A stretch of 64,000 nt of DNA from Eledone cirrhosa (lineage: Eukaryota), in assembly GCA_964016885.1 (NCBI GenBank), contig OZ024761.1, positions 1,674,001 through 1,738,000 of the forward strand, given 5' to 3'. Shown in pieces: positions 9,001 to 61,031 of the stretch (the first letter of the stretch is position 1; each line of letters opens with the position of its first letter). The translations under genes and the position numbers were made by a program. The notes beneath the pieces are model-generated. The model searched no databases and was not told the DNA's origin. It saw only the letters and a list, made by a program, of their open reading frames with translations.

Positions 9001-12000
9001 TATGCCGCAAAGCATGGTGTTCGATGCTCTACCGATTCTGCCAATCCACTGCCCTAGATTGAAATAATGACTAAGATTGTTTGTCTTTCTAGAATGTCTC
9101 CCTGGATTCTATGGAAGAAATTGTAAAGAAGAGTGCAACAACTGCAGAAAGACATGTGATCAATTGACTGGCAAATGTGTGACTGGATGTAAAGATGGAT
9201 ATATTGATGTGAATAACACTTGTAAAGGTGAGTGGTGGTGGTGGTGGTGGTGGAGTGTAGGTGGTTGTCATGGTTATAGTGGGAGTGGAGTGTTGGTGGC
9301 TGTCGTGGTTATAGTGGGAGTGGAGTGTAGGTGGTGGTGGAGTGGAGGTGGCTGTCATGGTTATAGTGGGAGTGGAGTGTAGGTGGTGCTGGAGTGGAGG
9401 TAGTTGTGATGGTGGTGGAGTGTAGGTGGCTGTCGTGGTTATAGTGGGAGTGTAGGTGGTGGTGGAGTGGAGGTGGTGGTGGTGGTGGAGTGTAGGTAGT
9501 TGTGGTGGTGGTGGTGAGGATGATGTTGGTGTTGGTGGTGGTGATGGTGTTGGTGGAGTGTAGATGGCTGTCGTGGTTATAGTGGGAGTGGAGTGTAGGT
9601 GGTGGTGGTGGTGGTGAGGAGGAGGATGCTCGTTTTGTTGTTGTTGGTCTGGTGGTGGTGCTGCTGCTGGTGATAGTGGTAGTGGTGGTGGTATTGCATA
9701 TTGTTGATGTTGTTTAGCCCCAGGTAAGCCAAGATCCAACAGACCTGCCAAGAGGGGTCTCAGATGGTGCTTGGAACATAACTTAACAAAGGTTGTTAGT
9801 ATTGTAAGAACAAGGTCCACATCTGGCAGTTTGGTATCAAAATGGTTAAGATGGTATTTGGAACATAACTTAACAAAGGTCCTTAGTATTGTAAGGCTTG
9901 ATTAATCCTATTAATCCTTTGTATTCTTACTCAGTTGAACCTCATTTTTTTTTACAAATGTTTAGTGAGATAAAAGAGCAGAGGTTTTCTCATGATCTTT
10001 CATTGTAGAATGTCCAGAGGGGAAATTTGGACCAAACTGTGGCAACACATGCCACTGTGCTGACAACAGCAGGTGTAACAAACAGACAGGTGTGTGTTCA
10101 AGTGGAGGATGTGCTGCTGGTTATGAAGGTAGCAACTGTCAGACAGGTAAGTGGTGTAGTATAGCTTTTTTTGTAACATAATATATTGTGTCAAGACAAT
10201 AGTAGGTGCTTATCCCATTTTTATGGTGTGAAACGACTGAGAGTACAAGACTCCCCCCTGGACAGGACGCCAATCCATCGTGGAGTTAAAACCCCAGCTA
10301 TTGCTGGTACTCGTTTTCAGCTGAGTATACTGGAGCAGCGTGAAATGAAGTGTTTTGCTCAAGAATACAACACACAACTCAGCCCAGGAATCGAACCCAT
10401 GACATTATGATTGTAAGTCCAACACCCTTACCACTAGGCCACACACCTCCACTATGCATGTGCATCTGTCTGTATAATTGTCTCTTCTTCTTCTTCATCC
10501 TCATGTTTTCTGTTGTTGTTGCTTATTCCATTGCAGTGTGTGCATCTGGTTCATTTGGTCCTAACTGCAAGTATATGTGCCACTGTGCAGACAACAGTAA
10601 ATGTAATATAGTGTCAGGGATATGTTCAAGTGGAGGATGTGCAGTTGGTTACAAGGGAAGTAACTGCCAGACAGGTTAGTAACCTACCACCAGATAGCGT
10701 TGTTTACACAACCATCCCTTCATACAACAACACTGTTTAAATGTTGAGAATCAATGAGTCCTTAATTTTTTTTTACATCAAACCACATAAGACTGCCCCT
10801 GCTTCTAGGGCAGGGGCATGTAGCAGGCAGCCCGTGGGCCACAATCCGCCCTACCAGACCAGTCAAAGTGGCCCGCAGTGACCATTTTTAATTTTTACCT
10901 TGTAGGCTTATTTACAATTTTTTTCATAACCGTAATACAATTTTCTGTTAGTTGACCTATACTAAAGGGCTTCACTGATGGAAAGAAGTTGTGGTGAATC
11001 TTTGGAATAGTGCTTAATAAATATTAATAGCCCTAATAATTGTTCCAATGTTCAAAAGTGGCCCGCCAATGGAATATGTTGCACACCCCTGTTCTAGGGT
11101 ACAAAATTGTTTAGTTTAAAGTGGTTATGTATGTATGTATGTATATATGTACATATGTATGTATGTTAAATGGTACAATCAGCACTCATTTAACTGGATA
11201 GACAGAAGAAGAAGCACAGCGCTATCCAAAATTATGCTAAATCAGAAGGAGGCTAAAACAGAACCAGGTACAGTACTCGTTTTCTTGGCGTATTCTCACA
11301 AATGCATTTCCATATTTATGCGAATCCTTTTTCATGTGGCTGTGATCTCTGTACAACGGAAGCTCAACACATTATTAATAGGAGACAGGAAATAATTAAC
11401 AAAGGCTCTGACCACTTTAACCTTTAGCATTTAAACCGGCCATATCCGGCCAGAATTCTCTCACCTTTTTCTGTTCAAACCAGCCGTAACTGGCTGCTCA
11501 TACTTATGTTAAGGTATTGTTCTCAAAATAAATAATATCAAAATCGTGTGGATTTGATATTATGTGAGATTATTATGTGAGGTAAAGACTTTACAGAGAA
11601 AATACATTACAGAGTAATGTAAATGCTAAAGAGTTAATACTTGTATGCATAAAATATCTAAAACTTTCCTTAGATTAGATAGTTAACACATTCCATGCTA
11701 ACTTCCACCTAGAGCTGAACATAATTACTAAATCTATACATTTAATGCATCCTTACATAGTTACACAAGAATCACCTTCTCTAATAATACACAACTTGGA
11801 TATATAGCTATGTAGTTCAAACAAATAAACAAAGTTCAAATAAACAAAAAAATAAGTAGATTATTCGAACCAATTCTTTAACATATATGAACGGAGGGTG
11901 GGGGGATGACTGACCCCTCTGGTAATTTGATACCTTAACCTACTTACCATCCCTAGTATGTCAGCAACAATAGCACCTCCTGCTTCATATCTGCCTACTA

Positions 12001-15689: not shown

Positions 15690-15765
<76 letters not shown>

Positions 15766-15769
15766 ATAC

Positions 15770-15817
<48 letters not shown>

Positions 15818-15866
15818 ATACATATGTATATATATATATATGTGTGTGTGTGGGTGTGTATATATA

Positions 15867-19794: not shown

Positions 19795-22700
19795 TCAGGT
19801 TATCAATAATGTAGTGATAATATATCGTTACGTTAGAGATGAACAGCGTATGTGCAGGTTTGCTCAACGAGTATAAAAATATATATATATATATATATAT
19901 ATAACTCTTATCTTATTGAGCCCTCTCCAGATTTTGGTGTTTGTATTTATTATTAACTACTCTCTCACTTCTCTCTCTCTCTATGGCTTAGTGGTTAGAG
20001 CATTGGCCTTGCAATCGAAAGGTTGTGAGTTCAATTCTCAGACCGGGTGATGTGTTGTTTCCTTGAGCAAGACACTTTATTTCACATTGCTCCAGTTTAC
20101 TCAGCTGTAGAAATGAGATGATAGGGATTGCGGTCCCTATCATTCCACTGCAAAGTGGTCGTGGAGGTGCCACGGCAAAAAAGCACCCAGCACTCACTGT
20201 AAATGAGGTTGGTGTTAGGAAGGGCATCCAGCTGTAGAAATCAAGCCAGAATCAGTTTCCGTCCCACCCTCGCAAGCAGGGAAAAGTGGACGTAAAATGA
20301 TGATGATGATGATGATGATACATATATACGTATATATATATATATTCATAAAACTCTTATCTTATTGAGCCCTCTCTAGATTTTGATCTTTGTATTTATT
20401 ATTAACTACTCTCTCTCTCTTCTCTCTCTCTCTCTCTGTATATATATATGTGCGTGTGTGTGTGTGGTGCTGCTGCTGCTGACATTCTTAATGATAAAGA
20501 AGAAGATATACATTTCATTTTTAATGTTTTCTTTAATGTTTTCTTACAGTGTCACATGAAGCAATTTCTCTGGTCTCACATTTTCAAAATTCAAATAATG
20601 TCTACCATGTAAAATATGAAAATATCGGAAATTAATGTGAATTATTAAATATATTTAGACTTCCATATTTTTTATTTTCAGTCTGTAAAACAGGTAAATT
20701 TGGAGCCAACTGTAAATACACATGTCACTGCGCAGATAACAGCAGGTGTAACAAAGAGACAGGTGTGTGTTCAAGTGGAGGATGTGCTGCTGGTTATGAA
20801 GGTAGCAACTGTCAAACAGGTAAGTACTGTAGTACAGATTTGTTTCTAACTTGATATATGAAACAAAACAACAGCAGATGTAAAAAAACAGACAGAGACA
20901 GGTGTGATGCTGGTTATGATGATATAGATATAATACAGATGATTAGATATAATATATAGGATATAGATATCATATAGGTTGTAGAGATATTGTATAGATG
21001 ATATCACTATATCATAGATGACAACACTATAATATCATCATCATCTTCGTTTAACGTCCATCTTCCACGCCAGCATGGGTTAGACTCATCATCATTTTAC
21101 GTTCGCTTTTCCCTGCTTGCAAGGGTGGGACGGAAACTGATTCTGGCTTGATTTCTACAGCTGGATGTCCTTCCTAATACCAACCTTATTTTCAGTGAGT
21201 ACTGGGTGCTTTTTTGCCATGGCACCTCCACGACCACTTTGCAGTGGAATGATATGGACCCCAGTCCTATCATCTCATTTCTACAGCTGAGTAAACTGGA
21301 GCAATGTGAAATAAAGTGTCTTGCTCAAGGAAACAACACATCACCCGGTCTGAGAATTGAACTCACAACCTTTCGATTGCAAGGCCAATGCTCTAACCAT
21401 TAAGCCATGTGCCACCATAGCTATAGATGATATAATTATGATATTTATTATCTTGTATAGTGTTATATGTTGCTATAATTGTCATTGTTCTCATATTTTA
21501 TACCCACAGTCTGTAAAACAGGTAAATTCGGACCCAACTGTAAATACACATGTCACTGTGCTGATAACAGCAGGTGTAACAAAGAGACAGGTGTGTGTTT
21601 TAGTGGAGGATGTGCTGCTGGTTATGAAGGTAGCAACTGTCAGACAGGTAAGTGGTGTAGTATAGCTTTGTTTCTAACTTAATATATTAGGTTATTACAT
21701 GGAAGGGAAACATGTATGCTACATGTGTTAGAAGTGACATGATTTATCGGAGCAAGGAGCTGTCCTTCCACCGCATACTCATGCAGAACATTCCATATTT
21801 TTATTTTCAGGGTGTAAAACAGGTAAATTTGGACCTAACTGTAAACACACATGTCACTGTACTAACAACAGCAGGTGTAACAAACAGCTAGATGTAATAC
21901 AGAGACAGGTGTGTGTTCCAGTGAAGTGTGTGGTGATGGTTATGAAGATAGCAACTGTAAGACAGGTGTGTTACAGTAGAGGGTGTGGTGCTGGTTATGA
22001 AGAAGTGGTACATAGTTTCTGTTACTTGCAGTGGAGGAAGGTGTTCTGAAAGCACAGTAGCCAGTGTGAGAATGGGTTGAAGAAAGTTCAGTGAGCTACT
22101 AAATCCCCACTCCTCACCCATGCCCCTAAATCTACCTCCTCAATCCCCATGCAACTGCCCCACTCAAGTCCCCAGTCCACACTGTAAAGTGGTTGTGATA
22201 GTACCACAACGAAAATGCCCAGCCCACACTGTAAAGTGGTCATGTTGGTGACACAAAATGTGCCCAGCCCTCATTGTAAAGTGGTTGTGATAGTGCCACA
22301 ACAAAAATGCCCAGCCCACACTATAAAGTGCTTGTGATAGTGCCACAACAAAAAGTGCCCAGCGCACACTGTAAAATGGTTGTGATAATGCCACAACAAA
22401 AAGTGCTCAGGTCTCATTGTAAAGTGGTCAAGTTGGTGACAACAAAAAGTGCCCAGTCCACACTGTAAAGTGGTTGGCATTTGGAAGGCCATCCAGCCAT
22501 CAAAATCAATCCAAAATCAGTTCTGCATAAGCAAGACATGGCCATCTGACCCAACTTTTCTCACAATGGGACAGTATATCTAACCCATGCTAGCATAGAA
22601 AATGGACATTAAATGGTAATGATGAGGATGATGATTATCTTGTATAGTGTTATATGTTGTTATTATTGTCATTGTTCTCATATTTTATTTCCACAGTCTG

Positions 22701-31700: not shown

Positions 31701-34270
31701 ACAGACAGGTGTGTGTTCTAGAGGAGGATGTACTGCTGGTTATGACGGTAGCAACTGTCAGACAGGTAAGCTTTGTTTGTTACTTAATATATTTAGTCAA
31801 GATGATAGTAGGTGTAACACAGAGACAGGTGTAAGACAGAGACAGGTGTGTGTTCCAATGGAAGATGTGTTCCTGGTTATATGGTAGCAGCTGTCAGACA
31901 GGTGTGTTACAGTAGATGGTGTGGTCCTGGTTATAAGGTAGCACCTGTCAGACATGTGTGTGCTCTTTTGTAGTTATATTTCTTTAGAGAATCTACCAGA
32001 CAAATGGATGAATGTCCTCTTCAGTCATGATGAAATATATCCAGTAACATCTGAGAGGTCAGTAGCTCCGATTAAGTTCTGAGTCGGTCTCTGTTGACAC
32101 ATCCCACTCTTTGTTACAGGGGAAGTGAATGTTAAATGTTGAACATGAGGAAGATGTGAGTAGCAAGGGCAGTAGAGTTACAGATTAACCCTTTAGCATT
32201 TACACTACTTCATATACACTATTATATTTTCACAGTAAAGGCTTTATCTCATATAATTATCTCACATAATATCAAATCTATGAGATTTTTATATTATCTA
32301 TTTTGAGAACAATACCTTAACATACCGGTTTAAATTCTAAAGGTTTTAATGGGTTGTGATTTTGAGTTCTTTTTTAAAACGGTATTCAAATCCCACCAAA
32401 ATCAACTTTTTCTGTCATACTTTTGGAGTAGATAGAATAATATAGCAGTGAAATACCATGCAATGGACTGGCATCCTGTCCAGGTGTGGGGAATACAGTG
32501 GACTCTGCTCAGTGTGATACCTACCGACAGTTAGAAGGACTGGGCTGTTGAATATACAAAAACAAAAAATGTCTAAAGTGTGTCTCGAGTGCTGAGGGTC
32601 ATCAGGCCAGTGCTATCTATGGCATGAAGTGACTTAAAATACAAAACTTCCCCTGGACAGGGCACCAGTCCATCCCAAGGTTAAATCACCAGCTATTACT
32701 GGCACTGATCTCCAAGCTTCCTGAAATTCGCCAACACTACACCTGATATCCCTCCTCCATACACACGTACATATGTTTATCATGACTCATACACTGTTCA
32801 TTTTCCTGACATTTGTTCATTATTCTATGTGCTTTACATGCACCTTTGATGAGTTATAGTGCACCTGAGCACTGTACACAATAATTTCACTATTATTATT
32901 ATTATACTGGAGCGGTGGATTGTCAGTATTGGTAGAGAGTCGGACGCCATGCTTTGAAGCATAGAGTTACGTCCCTTTATGATCTGAGTTCAAATCCCAC
33001 CAAGGTTAACTTTGCCTTTCATCCTTACGGGGTCGATAAAATAAAGTACCAGTAATGTACTGGGTAATTGCTGGCCTTGTGTCAAAAGTAGAAACAATTA
33101 TTATTATACTGGAGCAACATGAATGGAAATACTTTTGCTCAAGAACACAACACACAACCTAGTTCGGGAATAGAACTCACAACATTATGATTGTAAGTCC
33201 AACACCCTTACCACAAGGACACGCAAATACACACCAAAATATATATTTGTTATTGATTGATTTGTAGGATGTAAGAGAGGAAAATTTGGACCAAACTGTC
33301 GAAACATATGTCATTGTGCTGACAACAGTAAATGTAACCCACAGACTGGTAGCTGCTCTAATGGAGGATGTGCTCCTGGATATGAAGGTGGCAACTGTCA
33401 GACAGGTAAGTGGTGTACTATCATCATCATAAATATCATCATTGTTATTATCATCATTGTTATTATCATCATCATTACTACTACCACCACTACCACAACC
33501 GCAACCACTACCCAACATCACTATCAACCACCACAACTCCCACTGCAACCACCACCACCTCCACAACCACTACCAACCACCACCAACCACCACCACCAGC
33601 CACCACTGCCACTAACACCACTACTACTACCACCACCCACCACAACCCCACCACCACCACCACAACTCCACCAACACCACCACCACCAGCAGGCACCACT
33701 GCCACTAACACCACTAACACAACTACCACTACCACCACCACCACTACCACCACCACCACAACCCCACCACCACCACAACCATCATCACCTCCACCAACAT
33801 CTTACTCATTATCATCAACACCAGCACCACCACCTTCACAATCATCACCATAACCTGTACCACCACCACCACCACCATAACCTGTACTACCACCATAACC
33901 GGTACCACCAGTACCACCACCACCACCACCACCACATAACCTATGTATGTATGTGTATGTGAGTGTGTGTATGTGAGTGTGTATGTGTGTGTGTATGTAT
34001 GTGAGTGTGTATGTGTGTGTATGGATGTGAGTGTATGTATGTGAGTGTGTGTATGTGAGTGTGTGTGAGTGTGTGTATGTGAGTGTATGTATGGGAGTGT
34101 GTATGTGAGTGTGTGTATGTGAGTGTGTGTATGGGAGTGTGTGTATGTGTGTGTGTGTATGTGAGTGTGTGTTTATGTGAGTGTATGTATGTGAGTGTGT
34201 GTATGTGTGTGTGTGTGTGTGAGTGTGTGTATGTGAGTGTGTGTATGGGAGTGTGTATGTGAGTGTCTGT

Positions 34271-49300: not shown

Positions 49301-52300
49301 GGTAAGTGGTGTAATACAAGGCTCTGCTGAATAGTTCTTAGGTTGAACAAGTTACTCTCATGCAATGTGACCAAATGAGGTTTATTTTTGCAAATAGTCC
49401 CCCCTGTGGTCCACACCCTTTCTCCATCGGTGTTGCAGTGCTACGATCCCATTTGTGAAAAAGCTTTCATCTTATCCATGAGAAACATCATCAGCAGGTG
49501 ATATGATGTCATCATCAATGTGATACTGATTCGAGCTAATTATTTAATCATACAGCTCTGCTACGTCCAGGATGAAAACCATACTGTTCATCAAAAACTC
49601 TGATAATGTCCGCCATGTAAAATATGAAACTATCAGAAATTAATGTAAATTAATTATTATTATATTTTCAGGGTGTAAAACAGGTAAATTTGGACCCAAC
49701 TGTAAATACACATGTCACTGTGCTGACAACAGCAGGTGTAACAAACAGACAGGTGTATGTTCCAGTGGAGGATGTACTGCTGGTTATGAAGGTAGCAACT
49801 GCCAGACAGGTAAGTGGTATAGTATAGCTTCTTTCTAACTTAATATATTGGGTTATCACATGGAAGGGAAAGATGTATGCTACATGTGTTAGAAGTGACA
49901 GGCTTGATCAGAACAAGGAGGTGTTAATCGACCCCATACTCATGCAGAACATTCCACATCTGATCCTGAAGAATACTGTCATAAGCCTTTTTGATGTCTA
50001 CGAAGCAGGGATAAATCTCTTGGCAGTAATCCCACGATTTATCAAAGACCTACCTCACTGTGAATATTTGGTCAGCTTTACTGCATCCAGGGTAAAACCA
50101 CATTGTCCATCAGCTAACTTGAACACAACAATCTCTCTTTGTCAGTCATTTATCATAAACTTTACCAGGAAGGTTTAACAAGGAGTTCCTTCTTTAATTG
50201 GAGCAATCTTTCTTGTCTCAATTTTACAGAATTAGAATAATGTCCACCATGTAAAATATGAAACTATCAGAAATTAATGTGAATTGTCAAATATATTTAG
50301 ACATCCATATTTTATTTTCAGGGTGTAAAACAGGTAAATTTGGACCCAACTGTGGCAACACATGCCACTGTGCAGATAACAGCAGGTGTAACAAACAGAC
50401 AGGTGTGTGTTCAAGTGGAGGATGTGCTGCTGGTTATGAAGGTAGCAACTGTCAGACAGGTAAGTGGTGTAATTCAAGGCTCTGCTGAATAGTTCTTAGG
50501 TTGAACAAGTTACTCTCATGCAATGTGACCAAATGAGGTTTATTTTTGCAAATAGTCCCCCCTGTGGTCCACACCCTTTCTCCATTGGTGCTGCAGTGCT
50601 ACGATCCCATTTGTGAAAAAGCTTTCATCTTATCCATGAGAAACATCATCAGCAGGTGATATGATGTCATCATCAGTGTGATACTGGTTCGAGCTAATTA
50701 TTTAATCATACAGCTCTGCTACGTCCAGGATGAAAACCATACTGTTCATCAAAAACTCTGATAATGTCCGCCATGTAAAATATGAAACTATCAGAAATTA
50801 ATGTAAATTAATAAATATATTTAGACTTTCATATTTTATTTTCAGGGTGTAAAACAGGTAAATTTGGACCCAACTGTAAATATACATGTCACTGTGCAGA
50901 TAACAGCAGGTGTAACAAACAGACAGGTGTGTGTTCTAGTGGCGGATGTGCTGCTGGTTATGAAGGTAGTAACTGCCAGACAGGTAAGTGGTGTAGTGTA
51001 GCTTTGTTTCTAAAATAATATATTGAGACATCACATGGAGGGGAGATATGTATGATACATGCTTTAAAAGAGACATAATTTATAGGAGTGAGACATGGAA
51101 GGGAAAGATGTTTGCTATATGTGTTAGAAGTGACATGATTTATAGGAGTGAGACATGAGTGATGAACATGGAGCAACAGAGAAAAATTGGAAGAAAATGA
51201 AACGAGAATTGTCTGGTGCAATATTCCCACTACTACCACCTGTACCACCACTACCATCACAAGACATTACCCTACAGCAGGGGTTGGCTACTTACGGCGC
51301 ACGGGCCGGTCCGGCTCAGGAAAGGATTTCGACCAGCCTGCAAGAACTTATGCCCAATGAGTTGTTTATTTAAAATTTAAATTTATTGTAACATGAGAGA
51401 CGAGCCTTTCGAATACAATAAAAGGCCTGCTGTTATAACTTTGGCATTTATTGAGGATATTGTGACTCATTTAACCCTTTAGCATTTAAACTGGCCATAT
51501 CCGGCCAGAAATCTCTCACTTTTTTCTGTTCAAACCGGCTGTAACTAGCCACTCATACTGACATTAAGGTATTCTTCTCAAAATAAATAATATCAAAATC
51601 TCATAGATTCAATATTATGTGAGATAACTATATAAGATAAAGTGTTTACTGCGAAAATACAATATTAAATATAGAGTAATGTAAGTGCTAAAGGGTTAAA
51701 TAACTTAAATTTACAACTTCAAGGTAAAACTCAGCTCGTAAATGAAATGTATAACCATATTGTTGCCTTTGAAAAAAACCTACAGTTGTGGGAACATCAA
51801 CTTCGAAATAAAAATTATGTGCATTTTCCATCATTTCAAGGAAGGAAATCACAGGATTCAGAGGTATTTGTGAATATAATCCAAGATTTGAGAAATGAAT
51901 AGTATAGTCAACACTCGAGATTAAATTTTAGCTTGTGTAATTTTCCATAATTATTCTTTTATGGCCTTTGTCCGGCCCGTGGAGGCAAAGAAGTTGCCAA
52001 TCGCTGATCTACACCAATGTTTTCCTGTTACAGTGTGCAGTAGTGGAAGATTTGGTGCCAACTGTGATCAGGTGTGTCATTGTGAAGATAACAACAGGTG
52101 TAATGTGGAATTAGGGATCTGTTCAAGTGGTAGATGTGCTCCAGGTTATGAAGGAAACAGTTGTCAGAAAGGTTAGTTATTTTCATATCTCAGCTTTTAT
52201 CTCTCACCAGTCCAGGTACTTTATTTGATCAACCCCAGTACATTACTGGTACTTTATTTTATCGATCCCAGTACGTTACCGGTGCTTTATTTTATCAACC

Positions 52301-55300
52301 CTGTAAGGATGAAAGCCAGAGCTATAACTTCAGTAGGATTTGAACCCAGTTACGGCCTTTTACGTTCTGAGTTCAAATCCCATCAAGGTAAGCTTTGCCT
52401 TTCATCCTTACTGGGTTGATAAAATAAAGTACCAGTAACACACTGGGGTCGATTTAATCAACATCCCTTCCCCAAATTTGTTGGCCTTGCATCTAAATCA
52501 GAAACCATTATAATAATCTCTAAATTTCTAATCAACAATCAATATTATTAGTTAGTAATATTAGTTAATAATTGTTTCTACTTTTGGCACAAGGCCAGCA
52601 ATTACCCAGTGCATTACTGGTACTTTATTGTATCGACCCCGTAAGGATGAAAGGCAAAGTTAACCTCGGCGGGATTTGAACTCAGAATGACAAGAGCCGT
52701 AACTCTATGCATCAAAGCATGGCGTCCGACCCTCTACCGATACTACCAATCCACCGATTAGTTAATAATTGTTTCTACTTTTGGCACAAGGCCAGCAATT
52801 ACCCAGTGTATTACTGGTACTTTATTTTATCGACCCCGATAAGGCAAAGTTAACCTCTGCGGGATTTGAATTAGTTAATATTATTTGGTGGATTTGCAGT
52901 ATCGGTAGAGTGTCGGACGTCATGCTTTGACGCATAGAGTTACGGCCCTTGCCATTCTGAGTTCAAATCCCGCCGAGAACTTTGCCTTTCATCCTTACGG
53001 GCTCGATAAAATAAAGTACCAGTAATGCACTGGAGTAATTGCTGGCCTTGTGCCTAAAGTAGAAACAATTATTAGTCAATATAATTAGTTAATATTACTC
53101 ATAAATATTACTAGTAGAGTGGTAGTTATAATAGTTAGTATAGTGAATGGTGTAGTGGTAGTTAGTAGAGCGGTAGAGTGGTGTGAAGGCACGTGGCTTC
53201 ATGGTTAGGGTATTCGGCTTAAGATTGTAAGGTCACGAGTTCAATTCCCAGCAGACGTTGTGTCCTTGAGCAAGACACTTTATTTCATGTTGCTCCAGTC
53301 CACTCAGCTGGCAAAAATGAACTGTACCTGTAATTTGAAATGCTAGCCTTGTCACATATTGTGTCTCGCTGAATCTCCCTGAGAACTACATTATGGGTAC
53401 GCGTGTTTGTGAAATGCTCAGCCACTTGCATGTAAATTTCACGAGCAGGCTGTACTGTTGATTGTATCAGTTGGAACACTCATCGTAACCGATGGAGTGC
53501 CACTACTACTACTACAGAGTGGTAGTTATAATAGTATAGTGAATGGTATAGTGGTAGTTAGTAGCGTACTAGTTACAATAGTTAGTATAGTGGTAGTTAG
53601 TAGCGTACTAGTTAGAATAGTTAGTATAGTGGTAGTTAGTAGCGTACTAGTTACAATAGTTAGTATAGTGAATGGTATAGTGGTAGTTAGTAGCGTACTA
53701 GTTACAATAGTTAGTATAGTGGTAGTTAGTAGCGTACTAGTTACAATAGTTAGTTTCGTGAATGATTTAGTAGTAGTTAGTAGAGTACTAGTTACAATAG
53801 TTAGTATAGGGAATGATGTAGTAGTAGTCAGTAGAGTACTAGTTAGAATAGTTAGTATAATGAATGATGTAGTAGTAGTTAGTAGAGTAATAGTTACAAT
53901 AGTTAGTATAGTGAATGATGTAGTGGTAGTTAGTAGAGTACTAGTTATAATAGTTAGTATAGTGAATGATGTAGTGGTAGTTAGTAGAGTACTAGTTACA
54001 ATAGTTAGTATAGTGAATGGTATAGTGGTAGCTAGTAGAGTACTAGTTGCAATAGTTAGTATAGTGAATGATTTAGTAGTAGTTAGTAGAGTACTAGTTA
54101 CAATAGTTAGTATAGGGAATGATGTAGTAGTAGTTAGTAGAGTACTAGTTACAATAGTTAGTATAGTGAATGGTATAGTGGTAGTTAGTAGCATACTAGT
54201 TACAATAGTTAGTATAGTGAATGGTATAGTGGTAGTTAGTAGCGTACTAGTTACAATAGTTAGTGTAGCGAATGATTTAGTAGTAGTTAGTAGAGTACTA
54301 GTTACAATAGTTAGTATAGGGAATGATGTAGTAATAGTTAGTAGAGTACTAGTTACAATAGTTAGTATAATGAATGATGTAGTAGTAGTTAGTAGAGTAC
54401 TAGTTACAATAGTTAGTATAGTGAATGATGTAGTGGTAGTTAGTAGAGTACTAGTTATAATAGTTAGTATAGTGAATGATGTAGTGGTAGTTATTAGAGT
54501 ACTAGTTACAATAGTTAGTATAGTGAATGGTATAGTGGTAGCTAGTAGAGTACTAGTTGCAATAGTTAGTATAGTGAATGATTTAGTAGTAGTTAGTAGA
54601 GTACTAGTTACAATAGTTAGTATAGGGAATGATGTAGTAGTAGTTAGTAGAGTACTAGTTACAATAGTTAGTATAGTGAATGGTATAGTGGTAGTTAGTA
54701 GCGTACTAGTTACAATAGTTAGTATAGTGAATGATGTAGTGGTAGTTAGTAGAGTACTAGTTATAATAGTTAGTATAGTGAATGATGTAGTGGTAGTTAT
54801 TAGAGTCCTAGTTACAATAGTTAGTATAGTGAATGGTATAGTGGTAGCTAGTAGAGTACTAGTTGCAATAGTTAGTATAGTTAATGATTTAGTAGTAGTT
54901 AGTAGAGTACTAGTTACAATAGTTAGTATAGGGAATGATGTAGTAGTAGTTAGTAGAGTACTAGTTACAATAGTTAGTATAGTGAATGGTATAGTGGTAG
55001 TTAGTAGCGTACTAGTTACAATAGTTAGTATAGTGAATGGTATAGTGGTAGTTAGTAGCGTACTAGTTACAATAGTTAGTATAGGGAATGATGTAATAGT
55101 AGTTAGTAGCGTACTAGTTACAATAGTTAGTATAATGAATGATGTAGTAGTAGTTAGTAGAGTACTAGTTACAATAGTTAGTATAGTGAATGATGTAGTG
55201 GTAGTTAGTAGAGTACTAGTTATAATAGTTAGTATAGTGAATGATTTAGTGGTAGTTAGTAGAGTACTAGTTACAATAGTTAGTATAGTGAATGGTATAG

Positions 55301-56766
55301 TCGTAGCTAGTAGAGTACTAGTTGCAATAGTTAGTATAGTGAATGGTATAGTGGTAGTTAGTAGAGTACTAGTTATAATAGTTAGTATAGTGAATGATGT
55401 AGTAGTAGTTAGTAGAGTACTAGTTACAATAGTTAGTATAGTGAATGGTATAGTGGTAGTTAGTAGCGTACTAGTTGCAATAGTTAGTATAGTGAATGAT
55501 TTAGTAGTAGTTAGTAGAGTACTAGTTACAATAGTTAGTATAGGGAATGATGTAGTAGTAGTTAGTAGAGTACTAGTTACAATAGTTAGTATAGTGAATG
55601 GTATAGTGGTAGTTAGTAGCGTACTAGTTACAATAGTACAGTGACTAGAAATGTGGAACGGCTGTGACTTCTTCAGAATTTGTTTATCTATTTTTTTTGT
55701 ATGTTTAGTTTGTGATATTGGTAAATTTGGACCCAACTGCGAAAGCATCTGTCACTGTACTGACAACAACAGGTGTAACAAACAGACAGGTGTGTGTTTT
55801 AGTGGCGGATGTGCTGCTGGTTATGAAGGTAGCAACTGTCAGACAGGTAAGTGGTGTAGTATAGCTTTGTTTGTAACTTAATATATTGAAACAAGATGAC
55901 AGTATGTGTAACACAGAGACAGGTGTGTGTTATAGTAGAATGTGTGGTGCTGATTATAAAGGTATCAACTGTCAGACAGGTATGTGTTTCAGCGGAAGGT
56001 GTGGTGCTGGTTGTGGAAGTAGCAACTGTCAGACAGGTGTGTGTTCCAATGGAGGGTGTGGTGCTGGTTATAAAGGTAGCATCTGTTCCATCTCAATGCA
56101 TCAGAACAGCATGAAATTTGAAGAGTCTGGTGTTATGACTCTCAGAAAGGTGTCTCCATTAACCTCAATGTGTCAGACGCACCATTCATCTTCTCTTTTA
56201 AGCCATATATATATATATCTATATATATATATGTAATCTGAGTTTTTTGAATATTAATAATAGCATTCGATTTGTCTGCAATTATGCAAACAAGCCTCAA
56301 TTTTAAAGCCATGTCAATAGAATGAACCCATCATTCTTGCTCTTGTGTTGGCATGTAAACAGAATTGCAGACACTAATGTTTCTGGGTATCACCCTTCAT
56401 CAGTACAGCTCACTCTTCACCTGCCAATTATCAGAGCTAGTGAAAATATATACTATTTTCTAAAATATACAGTGGCTGATCGGCCTGATTTCCATATTAG
56501 CAAACTGGCTGATCAGTCAGATCTGCATATTAGCAGATCCACTGATCAGCCAGATTTGTATATCAGCAGACTGGCCAGTAAGTTTCCTGTATACGAACAA
56601 TAAATGGCCGGCTTTGCCACATTCAAATAAAATAAAATTTCCACTCTACATGGCTGAATACAATAAATGTAATCCGAGGAGATGACGAAGGACCGTGACA
56701 AGTGGAGAGATGCTGTGCTGAATAGAACCCGTCCAACCCTTGCAAGCAGGGAAAAGCGGATGTAAA

Positions 56767-56805
<39 letters not shown>

Positions 56806-56983
56806 GTGTGTAAACAGAAATAACAACACAATCGGTACAGTATATGGAAAGAAAATATTAGGTTAACACTTGAAATAGCAATAAGAGGATCTTAAGGTTT
56901 TGGAAGCTAGTCCTTCATCAGAAGAAAGAATGAGAAATTAGAAAGATTAAAGGGACAGGTGGGGCGGAATCAGAAAAAAAAAA

Positions 56984-57015
<32 letters not shown>

Positions 57016-60000
57016 CATCATCATCATCATCACCGTTTTACGTCCGTTCTTCCACGCTAGCATGGGTTAGATGGGTTGTCCTGTTGTGGGCAGTGTCTGG
57101 TCGGCTGACCATGCCTTGCTCATACAGGAACTGATCTGGCTTGATATATATATGTATATTTATATATATATATATTTAAGAAAATCAACAAAGAAAAGAG
57201 AAGACAGCGAATGAAAACAAAACAAAACAAAAAACAATTTTTGAAAAGGAAACCGTTAAACCATAAAGCTACAAAAAACATACAATTTTGTGTGACATTA
57301 GTGAAAAAAAATATATATCATCACCATCACTGTTTTACGTCCATTCTTCCATGGGTTAGACGGGTTGTCCTGTTGTAGGCAATGCCAGGTCGAGTGACCT
57401 TGGCTTGCTCATATGGGAACTGATGCTGGCTTGATTTCTACAGCTGGATGCCCTTCCTAACACCAACCTCATTTACAGTGAGTGCTAGGTGCTTTTTTAC
57501 CGTGGCGCCTACATGTCCACTTTACAAATGGCTTGTACCCTTGGGAAGTCAGGTCTTCTGCATATATATATATATTAAGTGTTTCCGAAGGAAAGGAGAG
57601 TGTGCTATGTAAGCTACAGAGCTATTTAGTTATGTAATAAACAACAGAAGACAATTATTCCATTTACCAAAGGTTTCACGAAGACAGACGAGCTCGTCTG
57701 TCTTCATAAAACCTTTCGTAAATGGAATAATTGTCTTATGTTGTTTAATGGCGCATGTCTCTCGGACATGACACCCTTAATTTAATTTTGGAATTATATA
57801 TATATATATTTTTTTTCTGCCATAGTTTGTCAATATGGAAGGTTTGGTGCCAACTGCAGCAGTATATGTCACTGTACAGACAACAGCAAGTGTACCCCAG
57901 TGTCAGGGACCTGTTCAAGTGGGGGTTGTATTGCTGGATATGAGGGTAACAATTGTCAGTTAAGTAAGTATATATTTGTTGTTGTTGCTATTGTTGTTTT
58001 TGTTGCTATTGTTGTTTTGTTGTTATTTTGTTATTGATGGGCAACAGCAACAAACTCCCTCTTACACCAATGGCCAGTCAACACAGGCTGGAGATAGAAT
58101 GTGTAGCAACAAGAGCGGTGCCCCAGCATGGCCTCTGCCAGATGGCTGGAACAGATAAAAATGTAAGAGATGTTGTTGATGGCTGCTATTTTTGTTTGTT
58201 GTTGTTATTTTGTTATTGTTTTTGTTGTTGTTGTTGCTATTGTTGTTTGTTTTTGTTATTCATGTTATTGTTGTTGATGATGGTTGCTGTTGTTGTTATT
58301 GATGTTTACTGTTATTCTTGTACATTCTCTACATTTCACATCTCACACAATTCACATCTATATTTCACATTATACAATCCACACCTTTACAGTTCACATA
58401 TCCTACATTTCACATCACCTACATTTCACATCTCTTACATTTTACATCCTTACATTTCACATCTCCTACATTTCACATCTCTTACATTTCACATCTCTTA
58501 CATTTCATATCTACTACAGTTCACATATCCTACATTTCACATCTCCTACATTCCGCATCCCTACATTTCACATCTACATTTCACATCCCTACATTTCACA
58601 CCCACTACATTTCATATTCCTACATTTCATATTCCTACATTTCACATCCCATACATTTCACAACTCATACATTGTATATCACATACATTTCACATCTCAT
58701 TCCATCTAACTTCTATATTCTTCATATTTAATGTACCCAGAGTGTAGAAGTGGTAAATTTGGTGACAACTGTATTAACTCATGTCACTGTGCCAACAACA
58801 GCAAGTGTGACCCCATCACAGGTGTATGTTCCAGTGGTGGCTGTGAAGCTGGCTATCAAGGTAGCAATTGTCAGACAGGTGAGTCATTCAGTAGATCTTC
58901 TATGCTATTTGTATTTCTAGGTGAGCACATGGCACTTCAAAGTGAGATTCCAAACTTACCAAGGAAAGAGTGACATGAAAAGACCAAGGCTCCTTTGGGG
59001 TGCATTTTTGTCAGAGGCCAGTTAAACCTACATAGGTAGAGCTGTAACATGATAGGCCTGGGGTCCTTATTATTAAAACACCCAGAATATTTCCTATGGA
59101 GTGCATCCTTGTGGGGGGGGCCAGCCAAACCTACATAAATGTGAGCTGTAACAACAACATGATAGGCATGGTGTCCTTACCATTGAAACACCCAGAATAC
59201 TTCCTATGGGGTGACAACCTCATAGGAGGCCGACTAAGCCTATAAAGGTGCTTGTTTAAAAAAAATAAAACTTGACTATAAACCAAATGGATACACCATT
59301 TTTTGTCTTCTTCACTGATACTCTCCCCATGTGCCTTCTCCTCCTGCTTTCCACCACTACTATATTGGACTCTGTTCCTCGGAGTATTCTAGGTTCATGC
59401 CACCTCCACTCAGACATTTTCAACTGACTCCTCTCTCTTCTTTTCGTCCCACATTTTGTATCCACTTGGTGCCACCCTAATTAGTACAACCTCTCAAGAA
59501 CTGGTGCACCCAGGTCACTCAGTAAAGTGGTTGGTTACAAGAGGAATACCCAACCAGTAAAACCAAGCCAAAACTATGTAAAGCACAAATGTACCAATGT
59601 TTTTAATTAACCTTTCGTGTTCAAACCGGCCCAAACCGGCCAGAATTCTCTACCTCTTTCTGTTGATATTGGCTGTAACTGGTCGCTCAAACTGATGTTA
59701 AGGTATTGTTCTCAAAATAAATACTTTCAAAATCTCATAGATTCGATATTATGTGAGATAATTATGTGAGATAAAGCCTTTACCATGAAAATACAATAGT
59801 ATATATAGAGCAATATGAATGGTAAAGGGTTAATAATGATTTCTTAATTTTGGAGTAAAGAGAAAGTCAGTTGATTATATCTACCCCAGTTTTTAACTGG
59901 TACATTATTTTATCAAGCTTGTAAAAATGACATTCAAGTTTGACCTGAGCAAGATTTGAACTCAGAACTCAGAAGTTCTGCAAAGCATTTCATCCAACAA

Positions 60001-61031
60001 ACACTCTAACAGTTCTGCCCATTTCTTTCCCCTTTACAACAAAAGGATGACATTGTTCATCTAGAAAACACACGTGGTGTTTATGAGGCTGTTTGCTGGC
60101 AAACAAACTGAATATTAATGATATTATAATACTATTATAACATTATTGTTATCCAGTGTATTACTAATAAAGTACCAGTAATACACTGGGATAATTGCTA
60201 GCCTTGTGCAAAAAGTAGAAATAATTATTATTGAATCGCGAGGGTGGTGGATTGGCAGTATCGGTAGAGGGTCGGATGCCATGCTTTGCAGCATAGAGTT
60301 ACGGTTCTTTACGGTCTGAGTTCAAATCCCGCCGAGGTTAACTTTGCCTTTCATCCTTACAGGGTCGATACCAGTAATGCACTGGGGTAATTGCTGGCCT
60401 TATGTCAAAAGTCAAAACAATTCTTATTCACTCATGAATAAATAATAAATAATAGCTCTATATTTCAGAGTGCTCCAGTGGCAAGTTTGGTAAAGATTGT
60501 AGCTATAGCTGTCACTGCTATGACAATAGCACGTGTAACCCTAAATCTGGTACCTGTTCGAGTGGTGGGTGTACACCTGGCTATAAAGGTAACAACTGTC
60601 AAACAGGTGAGTGAAATGAAAGAAGCTAATTACTCTGTGCAACATATATGAATTCTTGTTTTATCTCTCAAAACTTTAGGTTGTTCTTTATTAGTCATTC
60701 CCAAAGTGGGATCCATGGAACCCAAGTGTTCTGCAAAGGAATGTCTGGGGTTCCATGAAAAAAAGGTAGAGAAGTATATTTATATTCAAACCATATAATA
60801 ATATGAGACTTTGGGATTCCGCCAGAAGTTTCTGAACCAAAAAGGGTTTGCTTTTTTTTTTTTTAACAAACAATGTTTTTGTTTCTTTGAAAGTCTGCCA
60901 GAATGGTAGATTTGGCAGCAACTGTGAAGGTATATGTCACTGTGTAGACAGTAACAAATGTGACTCAGTGACAGGAATATGTTCTGATGGAAGATGTGTT
61001 GCTGGTTTTGAAGGAAGAAACTGCCAAAATG
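2898..61031 (+). CDS. Partial multi-exon gene: FTP/fucolectin-domain plus multiple-EGF (MEGF10/11/SREC-like) protein, 41 exons, 5' and 3' ends outside window or not seen
   Basis: 41 stop-free exons with AG acceptors and GT donors, all phase 1-1. They join into one frame: 144+258+189+135+37x138 = 5832 nt. 8-Cys repeat CxxGxFGxNCxxxCHCx5CxxxxGxCxxGGCxxGYxGxNCQ. Confidence 0.93.
3574..3831 (+). CDS. Exon, FTP/fucolectin domain N-terminal half (258 nt)
   Basis: tttcag|GA...A|gtaagt; [10 protein letters not shown]...[21 protein letters not shown]...[19 protein letters not shown] matches the FTP motifs N(I/L)AxGKxAxQ, AVDGN, CSHT, WxVDL. Confidence 0.9.
3911..4954. mobile_element. hAT-type MITE with nested RTE-LINE 3' fragment and SINE pieces
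   Basis: 14-bp perfect TIR cagaggttctcaaa; 8-bp TSD ctctagaa (3903-3910, 4955-4962). Confidence 0.9.
4080..4472 (+). mobile_element. RTE-clade LINE 3' fragment
   Basis: [28 protein letters not shown]...GRRSRGRS then 3'UTR and (GAT)n tail. Sister copy on minus strand at about 12390-12742; tail-only copy at about 56675-56803. Confidence 0.85.
5192..5412. mobile_element. piggyBac-like MITE (TTAA target) nested in a SINE
   Basis: TTAA|ccctttagcattta ... taaatgctaaaggg|TTAA. Other copies at about 5701-6236, 8344-8641, 11417-11637, 32186-32345, 51475-51695, 59607-59833. Confidence 0.88.
6484..6672 (+). CDS. Exon, FTP/fucolectin domain C-terminal half (189 nt)
   Basis: ctgcag|CA...C|gtaagt; ...[33 protein letters not shown], the typical FTP C-terminal L(S/T)LCEVEV(F/Y). 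Confidence 0.9.
9093..9227 (+). CDS. Exon, divergent EGF repeat (135 nt)
   Basis: ttctag|AA...G|gtgagt; [44 protein letters not shown]. Confidence 0.9.
9229..9692. repeat. GGT/GGA-rich low-complexity repeat
   Basis: (ggt)n mixed with gtggagtgtag units directly after an exon donor. Confidence 0.9.
10009..10146 (+). CDS. 138-nt EGF exon 1
   Basis: tgtag|...|gtaagt; [45 protein letters not shown]. Confidence 0.9.
10537..10674 (+). CDS. 138-nt EGF exon 2
   Basis: tgcag|...|gttagt; [45 protein letters not shown]. Confidence 0.9.
10811..11091. mobile_element. hAT-type MITE
   Basis: cagggg...cccctg ends; exact 8-bp TSD ttctaggg (10803-10810, 11092-11099). Confidence 0.88.
12918..13588. mobile_element. 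pogo/Tigger-like MITE containing a tandem run of SINE copies
   Basis: Imperfect TIR cgtatttcccggcgtc / ggcgtcaggaaatacag-TA; three SINE bodies in tandem at 13017-13510. Confidence 0.7.
13617..13754 (+). CDS. 138-nt EGF exon 3
   Basis: ctcag|...|gtaagt; [45 protein letters not shown]. Confidence 0.9.
13783..14130. repeat. 51-bp minisatellite (~7 units) followed by GAT/GGT microsatellite to ~14485
   Basis: Unit gaagagacagggaccacgacagtatttagggactcactgattggtggaaga. Confidence 0.9.
14509..14646 (+). CDS. 138-nt EGF exon 4
   Basis: ttcag|...|gtatgt; [45 protein letters not shown]. Confidence 0.9.
14744..15692 (+). mobile_element. 5'-truncated, internally deleted non-LTR retrotransposon (RTE-like reverse transcriptase)
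   Basis: [24 protein letters not shown], (F)[25 protein letters not shown] joined directly to [14 protein letters not shown]; RLRFAGHCW; (TGA)n tail; frameshifts. Confidence 0.92.
16820..16999. repeat. Long palindrome (~83-bp arms, 15-nt loop) containing a hammerhead motif; Penelope-like terminus
   Basis: Arms 16820-16902 and 16918-16999 are near-perfect reverse complements. Confidence 0.9.
16847..16895 (-). ncRNA. Minimal type I hammerhead ribozyme motif
   Basis: Minus strand: cagg CTGAAGA aatttggggccgagaacccaac GAAA c ttga g TA cctg; stem I acagg/cctgt, GUA triplet. Confidence 0.6.
17092..17212. repeat. Near-perfect 121-bp palindrome
   Basis: tatacttggggaggg...cacactca-c-tgagtgtg...ccctccccaagtata with one mismatch. 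Confidence 0.92.
17339..17476 (+). CDS. 138-nt EGF exon 5
   Basis: tatag|...|gtaagt; [45 protein letters not shown]. Confidence 0.9.
17997..18120 (+). ncRNA. Type I hammerhead ribozyme motif, copy 1
   Basis: tcca CTGATGA g[tttataaga...tcttataa]c GAAA c agcc g TC tgga; predicted cleavage after C18116. Confidence 0.75.
19438..19561 (+). ncRNA. Type I hammerhead ribozyme motif, copy 2
   Basis: tcca CTGATGA g...t GAAA cggccg TC tgga; palindromic stem III ACGGCCGT; predicted cleavage after C19557. Confidence 0.72.
20682..20819 (+). CDS. 138-nt EGF exon 6
   Basis: ttcag|...|gtaagt; [33 protein letters not shown]... Confidence 0.88.
21510..21647 (+). CDS. 138-nt EGF exon 7
   Basis: cacag|...|gtaagt; [33 protein letters not shown]... 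Confidence 0.88.
21811..21965 (+). pseudogene. Frameshifted EGF pseudo-exon (155 nt = 138+17)
   Basis: Intact ttttcag acceptor and [25 protein letters not shown], then a 17-nt insertion ctagatgtaatacagag. Ends in weak cag|gtgtgt instead of gtaagt. Confidence 0.85.
22697..22834 (+). CDS. 138-nt EGF exon 8
   Basis: cacag|...|gtaagt; [33 protein letters not shown]... Confidence 0.88.
23108..24340. repeat. 48-bp minisatellite (~26 units)
   Basis: Unit attaaccctttcattaccatatttctaatgaaagacactgtctatgtc. Further blocks at about 26543-26638, 26990-27272, 29508-29862. Confidence 0.95.
24706..26279. mobile_element. hAT non-autonomous element with internal 31-bp minisatellite (copy 1)
   Basis: Ends taggggacatc / gatgccgacctctg; TSD gtatagat (24698-24705, 26280-26287); array gtggcctgctggtgagacactgcatagctat at about 25316-26250. 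Confidence 0.88.
26390..26527 (+). CDS. 138-nt EGF exon 9
   Basis: tccag|...|gtatat (weaker donor); [27 protein letters not shown]... Confidence 0.8.
27640..29244. mobile_element. hAT non-autonomous element with internal 31-bp minisatellite (copy 2)
   Basis: Same TSD gtatagat and the same flanks as copy 1; part of a ~2.95-kb tandem duplication. Confidence 0.88.
29355..29492 (+). CDS. 138-nt EGF exon 10 (duplicate of exon 9)
   Basis: Same sequence and splice sites as 26390-26527, 2965 bp downstream. Confidence 0.8.
30137..30274 (+). CDS. 138-nt EGF exon 11
   Basis: tacag|...|gtaagt; [37 protein letters not shown]... Confidence 0.88.
30960..31365 (-). mobile_element. CR1/L2-like LINE 3' end fragment
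   Basis: [42 protein letters not shown] plus (TAT)n tail. Related pieces at about 32714-32905(+), 36962-37090, 37202-37332, 63508-63772. Confidence 0.8.
31628..31765 (+). CDS. 138-nt EGF exon 12
   Basis: tccag|...|gtaagc; [45 protein letters not shown]. Confidence 0.88.
33268..33405 (+). CDS. 138-nt EGF exon 13
   Basis: tgtag|...|gtaagt; [45 protein letters not shown]. Confidence 0.9.
33420..34600. repeat. CAT/CAC microsatellite then (GTGTAT/GTGA) compound repeat
   Basis: Low-complexity runs 33420-33940 and 33942-34600. Confidence 0.95.
34851..36632. repeat. 1.8-kb (ACC/ACT)n-GCCATT compound trinucleotide satellite
   Basis: accaccactgccatt-based units of variable length. Confidence 0.95.
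37333..37632. repeat. 300-bp fold-back palindrome spanning a MITE/SINE junction
   Basis: cacaagcctttactgtg...caaatctcg-t-cgaggttg...cacagtaaaggcttgtg, centre ~37483. Confidence 0.9.
38556..39071 (+). repeat. Exon-derived 38-bp minisatellite
   Basis: Unit ggtgtggtgctggttatgaaggtaacaactgtcagaca = 3' part of the EGF exon; ends in an intact cag|gtaagtggtgtagtatagc. Confidence 0.9.
39794..39931 (+). CDS. 138-nt EGF exon 14
   Basis: ttcag|...|gtaagt; [16 protein letters not shown]...[13 protein letters not shown]. Confidence 0.87.
40182..40319 (+). CDS. 138-nt EGF exon 15
   Basis: ttcag|...|gtaagc; [27 protein letters not shown]... Confidence 0.87.
40922..41059 (+). CDS. 138-nt EGF exon 16 (A type)
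   Basis: ttcag|...|gtaagt; [16 protein letters not shown]...GCTAG. Confidence 0.87.
41572..41709 (+). CDS. 138-nt EGF exon 17 (B type)
   Basis: ttcag|...|gtaagt; [16 protein letters not shown]...GYENSNCQT. Confidence 0.87.
42096..42233 (+). CDS. 138-nt EGF exon 18 (A type)
   Basis: ttcag|...|gtaagt; [16 protein letters not shown]...GCTAG. Confidence 0.87.
42746..42883 (+). CDS. 138-nt EGF exon 19 (B context, KYT chimera)
   Basis: ttcag|...|gtaagt; [16 protein letters not shown]...GCAAGYEG. Confidence 0.87.
43253..43390 (+). CDS. 138-nt EGF exon 20 (A type)
   Basis: ttcag|...|gtaagt; open 46 codons. Confidence 0.87.
43865..44983 (+). mobile_element. Non-autonomous Helitron (1119 bp)
   Basis: A|TCTACTATATAAA ... 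cccgagtaatgccagg hairpin-like ... CCAG|T, no TSD; empty site gtgaa|ttattaaat in the paralogous intron at ~40882. Confidence 0.88.
45023..45160 (+). CDS. 138-nt EGF exon 21 (A type variant)
   Basis: ttcag|...|gtaagt; [16 protein letters not shown]... Confidence 0.84.
45674..45811 (+). CDS. 138-nt EGF exon 22 (B type)
   Basis: ttcag|...|gtaagt; [18 protein letters not shown]... Confidence 0.87.
46198..46335 (+). CDS. 138-nt EGF exon 23 (A type)
   Basis: ttcag|...|gtaagt; open 46 codons. Confidence 0.87.
46848..46985 (+). CDS. 138-nt EGF exon 24
   Basis: ttcag|...|gtaagc; [22 protein letters not shown]...GECGAG. Confidence 0.87.
47103..47524 (-). mobile_element. Solo LTR (422 bp), Gypsy-like
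   Basis: 4-bp TSD TACT (47099-47102, 47525-47528); minus strand starts TGTAGCAAGAGTTGC, TATAAA at 47410-47405, ends GTAACCCTGTTATA; empty site cctcaTACTcatgc at ~47953. Confidence 0.8.
47566..47703 (+). CDS. 138-nt EGF exon 25
   Basis: tctag|...|gtaagc; [27 protein letters not shown]... Confidence 0.87.
47989..48126 (+). CDS. 138-nt EGF exon 26 (B type)
   Basis: ttcag|...|gtaagt; CGNTCHC...GYENSNCQT. Confidence 0.87.
48514..48651 (+). CDS. 138-nt EGF exon 27 (A type)
   Basis: ttcag|...|gtaagt; open 46 codons. Confidence 0.87.
49164..49301 (+). CDS. 138-nt EGF exon 28 (B type)
   Basis: ttcag|...|gtaagt; CGNTCHC...GYENSNCQT. Confidence 0.87.
49672..49809 (+). CDS. 138-nt EGF exon 29 (A type)
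   Basis: ttcag|...|gtaagt; open 46 codons. Confidence 0.87.
50322..50459 (+). CDS. 138-nt EGF exon 30 (B type)
   Basis: ttcag|...|gtaagt; CGNTCHC...GYEGSNCQT. Confidence 0.87.
50846..50983 (+). CDS. 138-nt EGF exon 31
   Basis: ttcag|...|gtaagt; CKYTCHC...[13 protein letters not shown]. Confidence 0.87.
51278..52006 (+). mobile_element. Deleted hAT (Charlie/SPIN/GTF2IRD2-like) transposon with nested piggyBac-like MITE
   Basis: caggggttggc...gccaatcgctg ends. Removing the TTAA MITE (51475-51695) restores [50 protein letters not shown]. Confidence 0.85.
52034..52171 (+). CDS. 138-nt EGF exon 32
   Basis: tacag|...|gttagt; [45 protein letters not shown]. Confidence 0.9.
53182..53514 (+). mobile_element. 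tRNA-derived CORE-like SINE family 2, full length
   Basis: A/B boxes (gtggcttcatgg, gagttcaattcc), core ttgtgtccttgagcaagacactttatttc..ttgctccagtccactcagctgg, (CTA)n tail, TSD agagtggt. Related copies at about 3190-3405, 5090-5620, 7290-7540, 19984-20120, 21280-21415, 30650-30790. Confidence 0.85.
53524..55638. repeat. 51-bp minisatellite (~41 units)
   Basis: Unit atagttagtatagtgaatggtatagtggtagttagtagcgtactagttaca; seed copy at 53113-53177. Confidence 0.95.
55709..55846 (+). CDS. 138-nt EGF exon 33
   Basis: tttag|...|gtaagt; [33 protein letters not shown]... Confidence 0.9.
57638..57747. repeat. 110-bp palindrome centred on GAGCTC
   Basis: taaacaacagaagacaattattcc...gacgag|ctcgtc...ggaataattgtcttatgttgttta. 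Confidence 0.88.
57826..57963 (+). CDS. 138-nt EGF exon 34
   Basis: catag|...|gtaagt; [45 protein letters not shown]. Confidence 0.9.
   Translation, partial: FVNMEGLVPTAAVYVTVQTTASVPQCQGPVQVGVVLLDMRVTIVS
58320..58700. repeat. ~16-bp (tttcacatctcctaca) minisatellite
   Basis: Degenerate tandem units just upstream of exon 58741. Confidence 0.85.
58741..58878 (+). CDS. 138-nt EGF exon 35
   Basis: cccag|...|gtgagt; [45 protein letters not shown]. Confidence 0.9.
60469..60606 (+). CDS. 138-nt EGF exon 36
   Basis: ttcag|...|gtgagt; [45 protein letters not shown]. Confidence 0.9.
60894..61031 (+). CDS. 138-nt EGF exon 37
   Basis: tgaaag| (AAG acceptor)...|gtgagt; [45 protein letters not shown]. 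Confidence 0.88.

Follow-up and report, generated by a model that had tools for sequence, protein, structure and literature searches.

A likely single-source Eledone cirrhosa gene for a predicted membrane receptor with an F-type head on 53 EGF modules, and its decaying fragments elsewhere in the genome

Receptors of the MEGF10/11, Draper, CED-1, PEAR1 and SCARF group share a stalk of 8-Cys EGF modules, one membrane helix and tyrosine motifs in the tail, with NPxY and YxxL motifs present in the tails of MEGF10, Draper and CED-1. EGF modules are normally encoded by symmetric phase 1-1 exons. In arthropod Dscam1, duplicated exons encode alternative versions of a binding site. Among molluscs, single-pass receptors combining EGF modules with a galactose-binding/fucolectin domain have been linked to schistosome resistance in Biomphalaria (PMC13712769). 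Subgroup 1B of the B. glabrata resistance region is described as single-pass proteins that combine EGF-type repeats and a galactose-binding/fucolectin signature with a tail of small size (PMC13712769). The SudRes1 region of B. sudanica holds MEGF/GBD receptor phosphatases in duplicated segments and shows loss of EGF domains between haplotypes (PMC12297450). Loci for parasite resistance in snails thus contain receptors built in this way, with EGF number differing between haplotypes (PMC12297450, PMC13712769). A first-pass annotation of a locus in Eledone cirrhosa had suggested a possibly undescribed receptor. To call it undescribed goes too far, as the Biomphalaria reports already describe the architecture (PMC13712769, PMC12297450). 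The predicted product of the E. cirrhosa gene is best seen as an extreme variant of the known molluscan EGF plus GBD/fucolectin single-pass receptors. A literature search, with subscription papers and supplements outside its reach, found no paper on this gene, whether in its cephalopod or in more general forms.

The window analysed is a stretch of 64,000 nucleotides (G000:C22:1674001-1738000); position 1 is its first letter, and the numbering was continued beyond 64000 for downstream exons. Exons beyond the window were sought in a 250 kb flank. The resulting gene model comprises 63 exons and 3,003 codons open to the stop, with 0 bad splice sites and 0 internal stops. N-terminal domains come first, then an EGF module and an F-type domain, followed by 53 EGF exons, a single membrane helix and a tail of 185 residues. 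The locus is likely to be a single source gene for a predicted type I membrane receptor, with an F-type head on 53 EGF modules. Exons N1 (G000:C22:1663979-1664128) and N2 (G000:C22:1666600-1666731, single-copy) lie upstream of the window. The third known N-terminal exon, N3 (150 nt, phase 1-1; 1819..1968, plus strand, as for all exons given below), was placed by a profile of octopus relatives and by its splice sites. Scanned singly, exons N1-N3 gave no Pfam match, EMI included, in a scan that began at N1, and no convincing candidate for a signal-peptide exon was seen in the approximately 100 kb upstream. EGF exon 0 (144 nt; 2898..3041) precedes the F-type domain; in relative P0001 it is fused with the F-type exon. 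EGF exon 1 (135 nt; 9093..9227) provides the first stalk module. Beyond the last repeat exon of the window the gene continues through an intron (61032..64000). The suspicion that the array, then counted at 39 EGF modules or more, might run past the window proved correct: 15 more EGF exons were found at 64158-111293, 13 of which are 138 nt long, bringing the total to 54. One downstream EGF exon, D10 (L009; window numbering 87361-87543), contains an in-frame 45-nt poly-Gly insertion and keeps its Cys residues, and a gypsy-type retroelement lies in the intron before the last EGF exon (L011; window numbering 104974-107931).

All 37 repeat exons at 10009-61031 are 138 nt long, flanked by AG and GT, in phase 1-1, free of stops and endowed with 8 Cys, confirming the first-pass description of them. 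Chance cannot account for them, since in 50 exons of 138 nt all 400 Cys codons remain TGT or TGC, with exchange between the two. Repeat exons 1-13 (10009..33405), of which 9 and 10 are identical, are followed by a young core of tandem-duplicated exon-plus-intron units that packs 18 exons, repeat exons 14-31, into 11 kb (39794..50983), and by the older, more divergent repeat exons 32-37 (52034..61031). The core exons are near-identical to each other, with core modules 0-23 nt apart in pairwise comparison, and the 37 exons represent 32 distinct sequences in DNA and 30 in protein. The claim that every repeat is intact applies to the 37 listed exons but not to the introns of the array, where 19 remnant matches to the repeat exon were found. 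These include a dead full-length copy (21811..22004, plus strand), also present in fragment copies (see below), in which the acceptor is intact but a frame-shifting insertion is present and the sequence runs into sub-repeats. Minisatellites with units of 56 and 38 nt, derived from the 3'-terminal part of the repeat exon, occupy 38566..39073 (plus strand). Together with tracts at window positions 31826-31961 and 55895-56086 and in the C20 copies, they belong to a set of minisatellites with units of 38 and 54 nt that all go back to this part of the EGF exon, and such arrays reach dozens of units in fragment copies. Self-matches within the core range from 94 to 98.7%, the longest extending over 2,665 bp at 96.5%, and divergence within the core is 1.3-6%.

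The 52 stalk exons that follow EGF exon 1 are all in phase 1-1 with lengths that are multiples of three, and several of their donors are non-consensus (e.g. GTATAT, GTTCGT and GTTGGT). Both features would suit regulated in-frame exon skipping, through which one allele could yield many stalk lengths. However, the symmetric phase 1-1 exon is the ordinary form of an EGF module, and 27 of the 52 donors are GTAAGT. The shortest intron in the array is 250 nt, and the gene structure revealed no steric or frame barrier between neighbouring exons that could impose mutual exclusion of the Dscam type. Because the modules of the stalk hardly differ and there is just one copy of the head, skipping could alter length but not specificity. 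We consider regulated skipping unlikely, and the Dscam-like combinatorics proposed in the first pass finds no support in a gene structure of introns of at least 250 nt, symmetric exons, near-identical repeats and a single head. Most stalk exons are predicted to be constitutively spliced in. Against this, at least one exon-like unit in the array must be skipped, since the dead copy at 21811 retains its acceptor.

The membrane exon (114775-114847), which is single-copy, encodes a helix followed by basic residues, and is succeeded by tail exons at 115782-115912, 116803-117125 and 118462-118563, the last containing the stop. These exons were chosen by splice signals, frame and composition, without homologue support; when the last EGF exon and exon 36 were used as queries for homologues, neither gave a match, which is weak evidence. 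The very long EGF stalk envisaged beneath an F-type domain is upheld, with a membrane helix and a tail bearing tyrosine motifs added to it. The 8 tyrosines of the 185-residue tail occur in YEEF, YDEM, YRDR, YEVM (three times), YGVM and YENE, corresponding to five YxxM motifs and one YxN, and none of the 8 lies in an NPxY or YxxL motif. No Pfam match over the cut-off was obtained for the tail exons. YxxM motifs are associated with PI3K, and YxN with Grb2-type SH2 proteins. The tail could accordingly recruit PI3K- and Grb2-type SH2 proteins and lead to engulfment or adhesion, in the manner of Draper/MEGF10/PEAR1-type receptors. Where membrane and phosphatase (PTP) or other signalling exons had been named as features to look for downstream, we found the membrane and YxxM-tail exons but no PTP exon: none lies near the locus among the 72 PF00102 matches listed (at least 72 genome-wide), and neither a PTP domain nor a second full F-type domain was found in the 93 kb downstream of the last EGF exon. 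As the frame stops 185 residues past the membrane and no PTP exon is nearby, the predicted receptor has no cytoplasmic phosphatase. Intronless PTP domains with long open frames (up to approximately 1,250 codons) are located at G000:C22:17.64 Mb, C14:9.15-9.16 Mb, where three stand in tandem, and C10:12.09 Mb.

The F-type (FTP) domain is encoded by exon a (258 nt; 3574..3831), with the cation motif AVDGN and the conserved His, and exon b (189 nt; 6484..6672), which ends in CEVEVF and was matched by a profile of the relatives (iE 2.5e-6). Exon a matches the sequences of PDB entries 3cqo (E 2.5e-8), 2j22 (1e-6) and 1k12 (3e-5). Against PF22633 it scores E 1.2e-4, below the cut-off as a half domain, and single repeat exons score weakly as EGF-like (PF24887 and PF00053), also below the cut-off. 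A model of the relative P0091 (not the E. cirrhosa protein; mean pLDDT 42) superposes on 1k12 with a Z score of 15.2 and an rmsd of 3.1 over 143 aligned residues; the structural matches of this model covered the F-type domain only, and not the N2-N3 domain. The F-type cation motif h2DGx and fucose motif HX24RXDX4(R/K) are defined in PMC5712786. The first is present in E. cirrhosa as AVDGN. The fucose triad is incomplete: His and Asp are kept, but Tyr stands at the place of the first Arg, and the final basic residue lies one position off, which makes binding of canonical fucose by the head unlikely, judging from the motif. With Tyr for the first Arg, the name lectin used in the first pass is doubtful as regards fucose. 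What the head binds, at long range, may be some surface ligand that is not canonical fucose. The family includes at least 12 further F-type exons of greater divergence, several of them near PTP exons and most of them clustered on C2 (G000:C2:230-233, 257, 261 and 314-315 Mb; C17:40.2 Mb).

Parts of the gene recur elsewhere in the genome. For F-type exon a, 27 matches at 98-100% were obtained, spread over C16, C20, C22, C23 and C27 (source included), with differences of 1-3 nt between copies. Of 40 scored matches to exon 37, 28 are full-length; four of these lie on C19, a contig that lacks any match to the F-type exon. By contrast, a single genomic match was obtained for each of three exons: N2, the membrane exon and the last EGF exon. 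As these end exons match once and the copies cover an internal segment, the C22 locus is the source and the others are headless and tailless fragments. The copied segment, its range read from the C20 copies, is an internal 76 kb (window -4982 to 71126) with the entire window inside, and is represented by at least 26 more copies on four other contigs and by four FTP-less pieces on a fifth (C19). Copies that bear the F-type exon number at least 26, and 8 of them were read through between EGF exon 1 and exon 37. They contain 20, 19, 14, 12, 12, 10, 10 (orthologues of the dead 21811 copy excluded from these seven counts) and 10 repeat exons versus 37 in the source. Exon sets and exon order differ from copy to copy, private deletions, insertions and lesions are present, and all 8 have at least one stop, frameshift, splice loss or Cys loss. 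One fragment is split between repeat exons 2 and 9 by approximately 110 kb of other sequence (G000:C20:3746000-3857000), and the C16 and C27 copies have 23-26 kb devoid of repeat exons at a place similar to this C20 interruption.

The repeats of the source have a dN/dS of 0.29, a value from non-independent pairwise counts. By comparison, 174 fragment exon copies show 65 nonsynonymous and 18 synonymous distinct changes, giving a pN/pS of 0.89; this count omits core-type and D10 matches, and its changes are unpolarised, so that some possibly fall on the source branch. The same copies show 2 stops, 6 Cys losses (those stops included), frameshifts and splice-site losses. This demonstrates that the source exons are under purifying selection and that the fragments are decaying. 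It also bears on whether the approximately 30 extra copies form a functional, diversified receptor family or a gene-conversion donor pool for the source. With at least 27 F-type exons at 98-100% over five contigs, and an exon set and order particular to each copy, such a role might be entertained. However, the N2, last EGF and membrane exons occur once, every copy read through is damaged, the pN/pS is 0.89 and the F-type exon is near-invariant at 1-3 nt. We therefore rejected a multigene receptor family, and consider either role highly improbable. A broader version, an accordion receptor in which stalk length is polymorphic between individuals, exons are skipped in frame and the approximately 30 headless and tailless copies supply EGF and F-type exons, as a library of donors, to the one expressed gene, appears quite improbable as a whole. 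If true, it would represent a cephalopod form of recognition-receptor diversification that joins length tuning with pseudogene templates.

The fragments reside in a segmental duplicon that is young and mosaic, with units of 100-145 kb comprising the receptor fragment, an autonomous-type Helitron, a C2H2 zinc-finger fragment and LINE and gypsy pieces. It is found at G000:C20:3.49-5.30 Mb, C27:13.1-15.5 Mb, C16, C23:28.9-29.1 Mb, C19:35.4-39.9 Mb and C26:23.3 Mb, arranged in tandem on C20, with a gap in the assembly at the top of the array, and dispersed on C19. The start junction, identical in all 7 copies fetched over it, sits in an LTR-like repeat common to the source intron and a gypsy element, and the end junction sits in a dispersed repeat with an inverted duplication. 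The spacer contains the Helitron Rep-helicase and the zinc-finger fragment. With a Rep-helicase (PF14214 E 1e-62, PF05970 E 1e-63) 18-29 kb behind exon 37 on C16, C19, C20 and C27, head-to-tail arrays, and a CTAG|TC junction to a short degenerate-ended copy after the element, the units of 100-130 kb could be viewed as giant Helitrons that captured a gene fragment and were multiplied by rolling-circle replication. This is very unlikely, as the 5' and 3' ends of the element are internal to the unit, resembling those of stand-alone 6-kb copies on C8 and C17. Moreover, four C19 copies extend past the 3' end of the element and have at least 21 kb of other flank in common, the fragment breakpoints lie in the LTR-like repeat and another dispersed repeat, the C23 spacer fetched has no match to the element, and the element is broken by stops. 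Giant-Helitron capture was accordingly rejected as the main reading, the 5' TC and 3' hairpin-CTRR termini being internal rather than at the unit ends. We favour instead a single origin of the fragments, probably via ectopic recombination of one repeat with another, after which segmental duplication carried them further. The stand-alone 6-kb Helitrons, with A|TC and hairpin-CTAG|T ends, lie at G000:C8:43339971-43346150 and on C17 near 8.85 Mb. The family has 307 candidate matches genome-wide, and since all 40 that were scored are at least 97% identical, it has been recently active. A remnant on the minus strand at window 338-1650 probably stems from another Helitron: its 3' end, a hairpin-CTAG, is at 338, and positions 713-1048 hold a frame resembling a helicase linker.

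Variation in exon number, anticipated in the first pass, is seen between copies of the same gene, and because eight copies hold 10-20 repeat exons versus 37 in the source, exon number appears to change at the DNA level. The difference is concentrated between exons 13 and 32, where the source has 18 exons and no fragment that was read exceeds 3. Six units of the exon-30 type, at 97-100%, are present in the source, compared with a single one, at 94-95%, in each of 7 fragments, a distribution that favours a recent expansion of the core in the source. The lower counts of the fragments may reflect neutral deletions after copying or in their ancestor, and not an older allele. The divergence between source and fragments (1.2-2.3%; 0-1.8% between fragments over three blocks) overlaps with that within the core, and hence does not fix the order of expansion and copying. 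Assembly artefacts, either in the core array or among the dispersed copies, might be suspected from fragment pairs that are 0.0% apart across blocks of 1.5-2.4 kb and from the location of one cluster on a 0.8-Mb contig. The core is, however, without a long exact repeat (best 98.7% over 2,320 bp), and the copies bear their private deletions, insertions and lesions on five other contigs, so that an artefact is extremely unlikely.

Taken as a whole, we consider it reasonably probable that the gene encodes a long-reach receptor with a constitutive stalk that evolves by unequal recombination, and with an SH2-binding tail for engulfment or adhesion. The stalk likely gains and loses symmetric exons through unequal recombination in the genome, and when extended would probably reach more than 100 nm. 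With 53 modules behind the head, the gene represents an extreme cephalopod case, and the locus makes it possible to test whether receptors of this kind vary in reach, as opposed to the sequence of the binding site. In the dispersed fragments, gains and losses of exons are recorded in datable form, and the fragments also offer a neutral standard against which selection can be judged. They are also a warning for annotation, since a seeming expansion to 27 lectin genes is one gene with decaying fragments.

Tandem arrays of duplicated exons under purifying selection are shared with arthropod Dscam1. Unlike Dscam1, the array consists of serial stalk modules that can all be joined in frame, and not of alternative versions of a binding site. 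The 8-Cys EGF stalk, single helix and tyrosine motifs of the tail resemble MEGF10/11, Draper, CED-1, PEAR1 and SCARF, although the F-type head, the lack of an EMI match in the exons found, the lack of NPxY/YxxL in the tail and an approximately 3-fold number of repeats set the gene apart from the MEGF10/Draper group. Among cephalopods, Octopus sinensis 'protein draper' XP_029644740.2 (P0091) and O. bimaculoides 'fucolectin-5' XP_052834030.1 (P0052) have the domain order of the E. cirrhosa gene. In the Octopus relatives, which have the exon order in common with it as well, this domain order is a Cys-rich N-terminal domain, a beta domain, EGF, the F-type domain and EGF repeats, with 1-6 EGF modules after the F-type domain and a PTP domain in one relative. 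In contrast to the E. cirrhosa gene, P0091 and P0052 retain both arginines of the fucose motif region. EGF repeats, a galactose-binding/F-type domain and one helix are also common to the SudRes1 phosphatases (subgroup 1C) and to Octopus vulgaris CAI9733301.1 (P0079), from which the E. cirrhosa gene differs in having no phosphatase (PTP) domain. Closest in architecture is B. glabrata subgroup 1B, which is also marked by a signal peptide, a feature for which no convincing exon was seen in the approximately 100 kb upstream of the E. cirrhosa gene. Subgroup 1B likewise has one helix, EGF-type repeats, a GBD/fucolectin domain and a tail without a known domain, and gene fragments occur in the resistance region as they do here (PMC13712769). 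Relative to subgroup 1B as described there, the E. cirrhosa gene is distinguished by its 54 EGF exons, by five YxxM motifs in the tail, and by fragments distributed on five other contigs as a duplicon.
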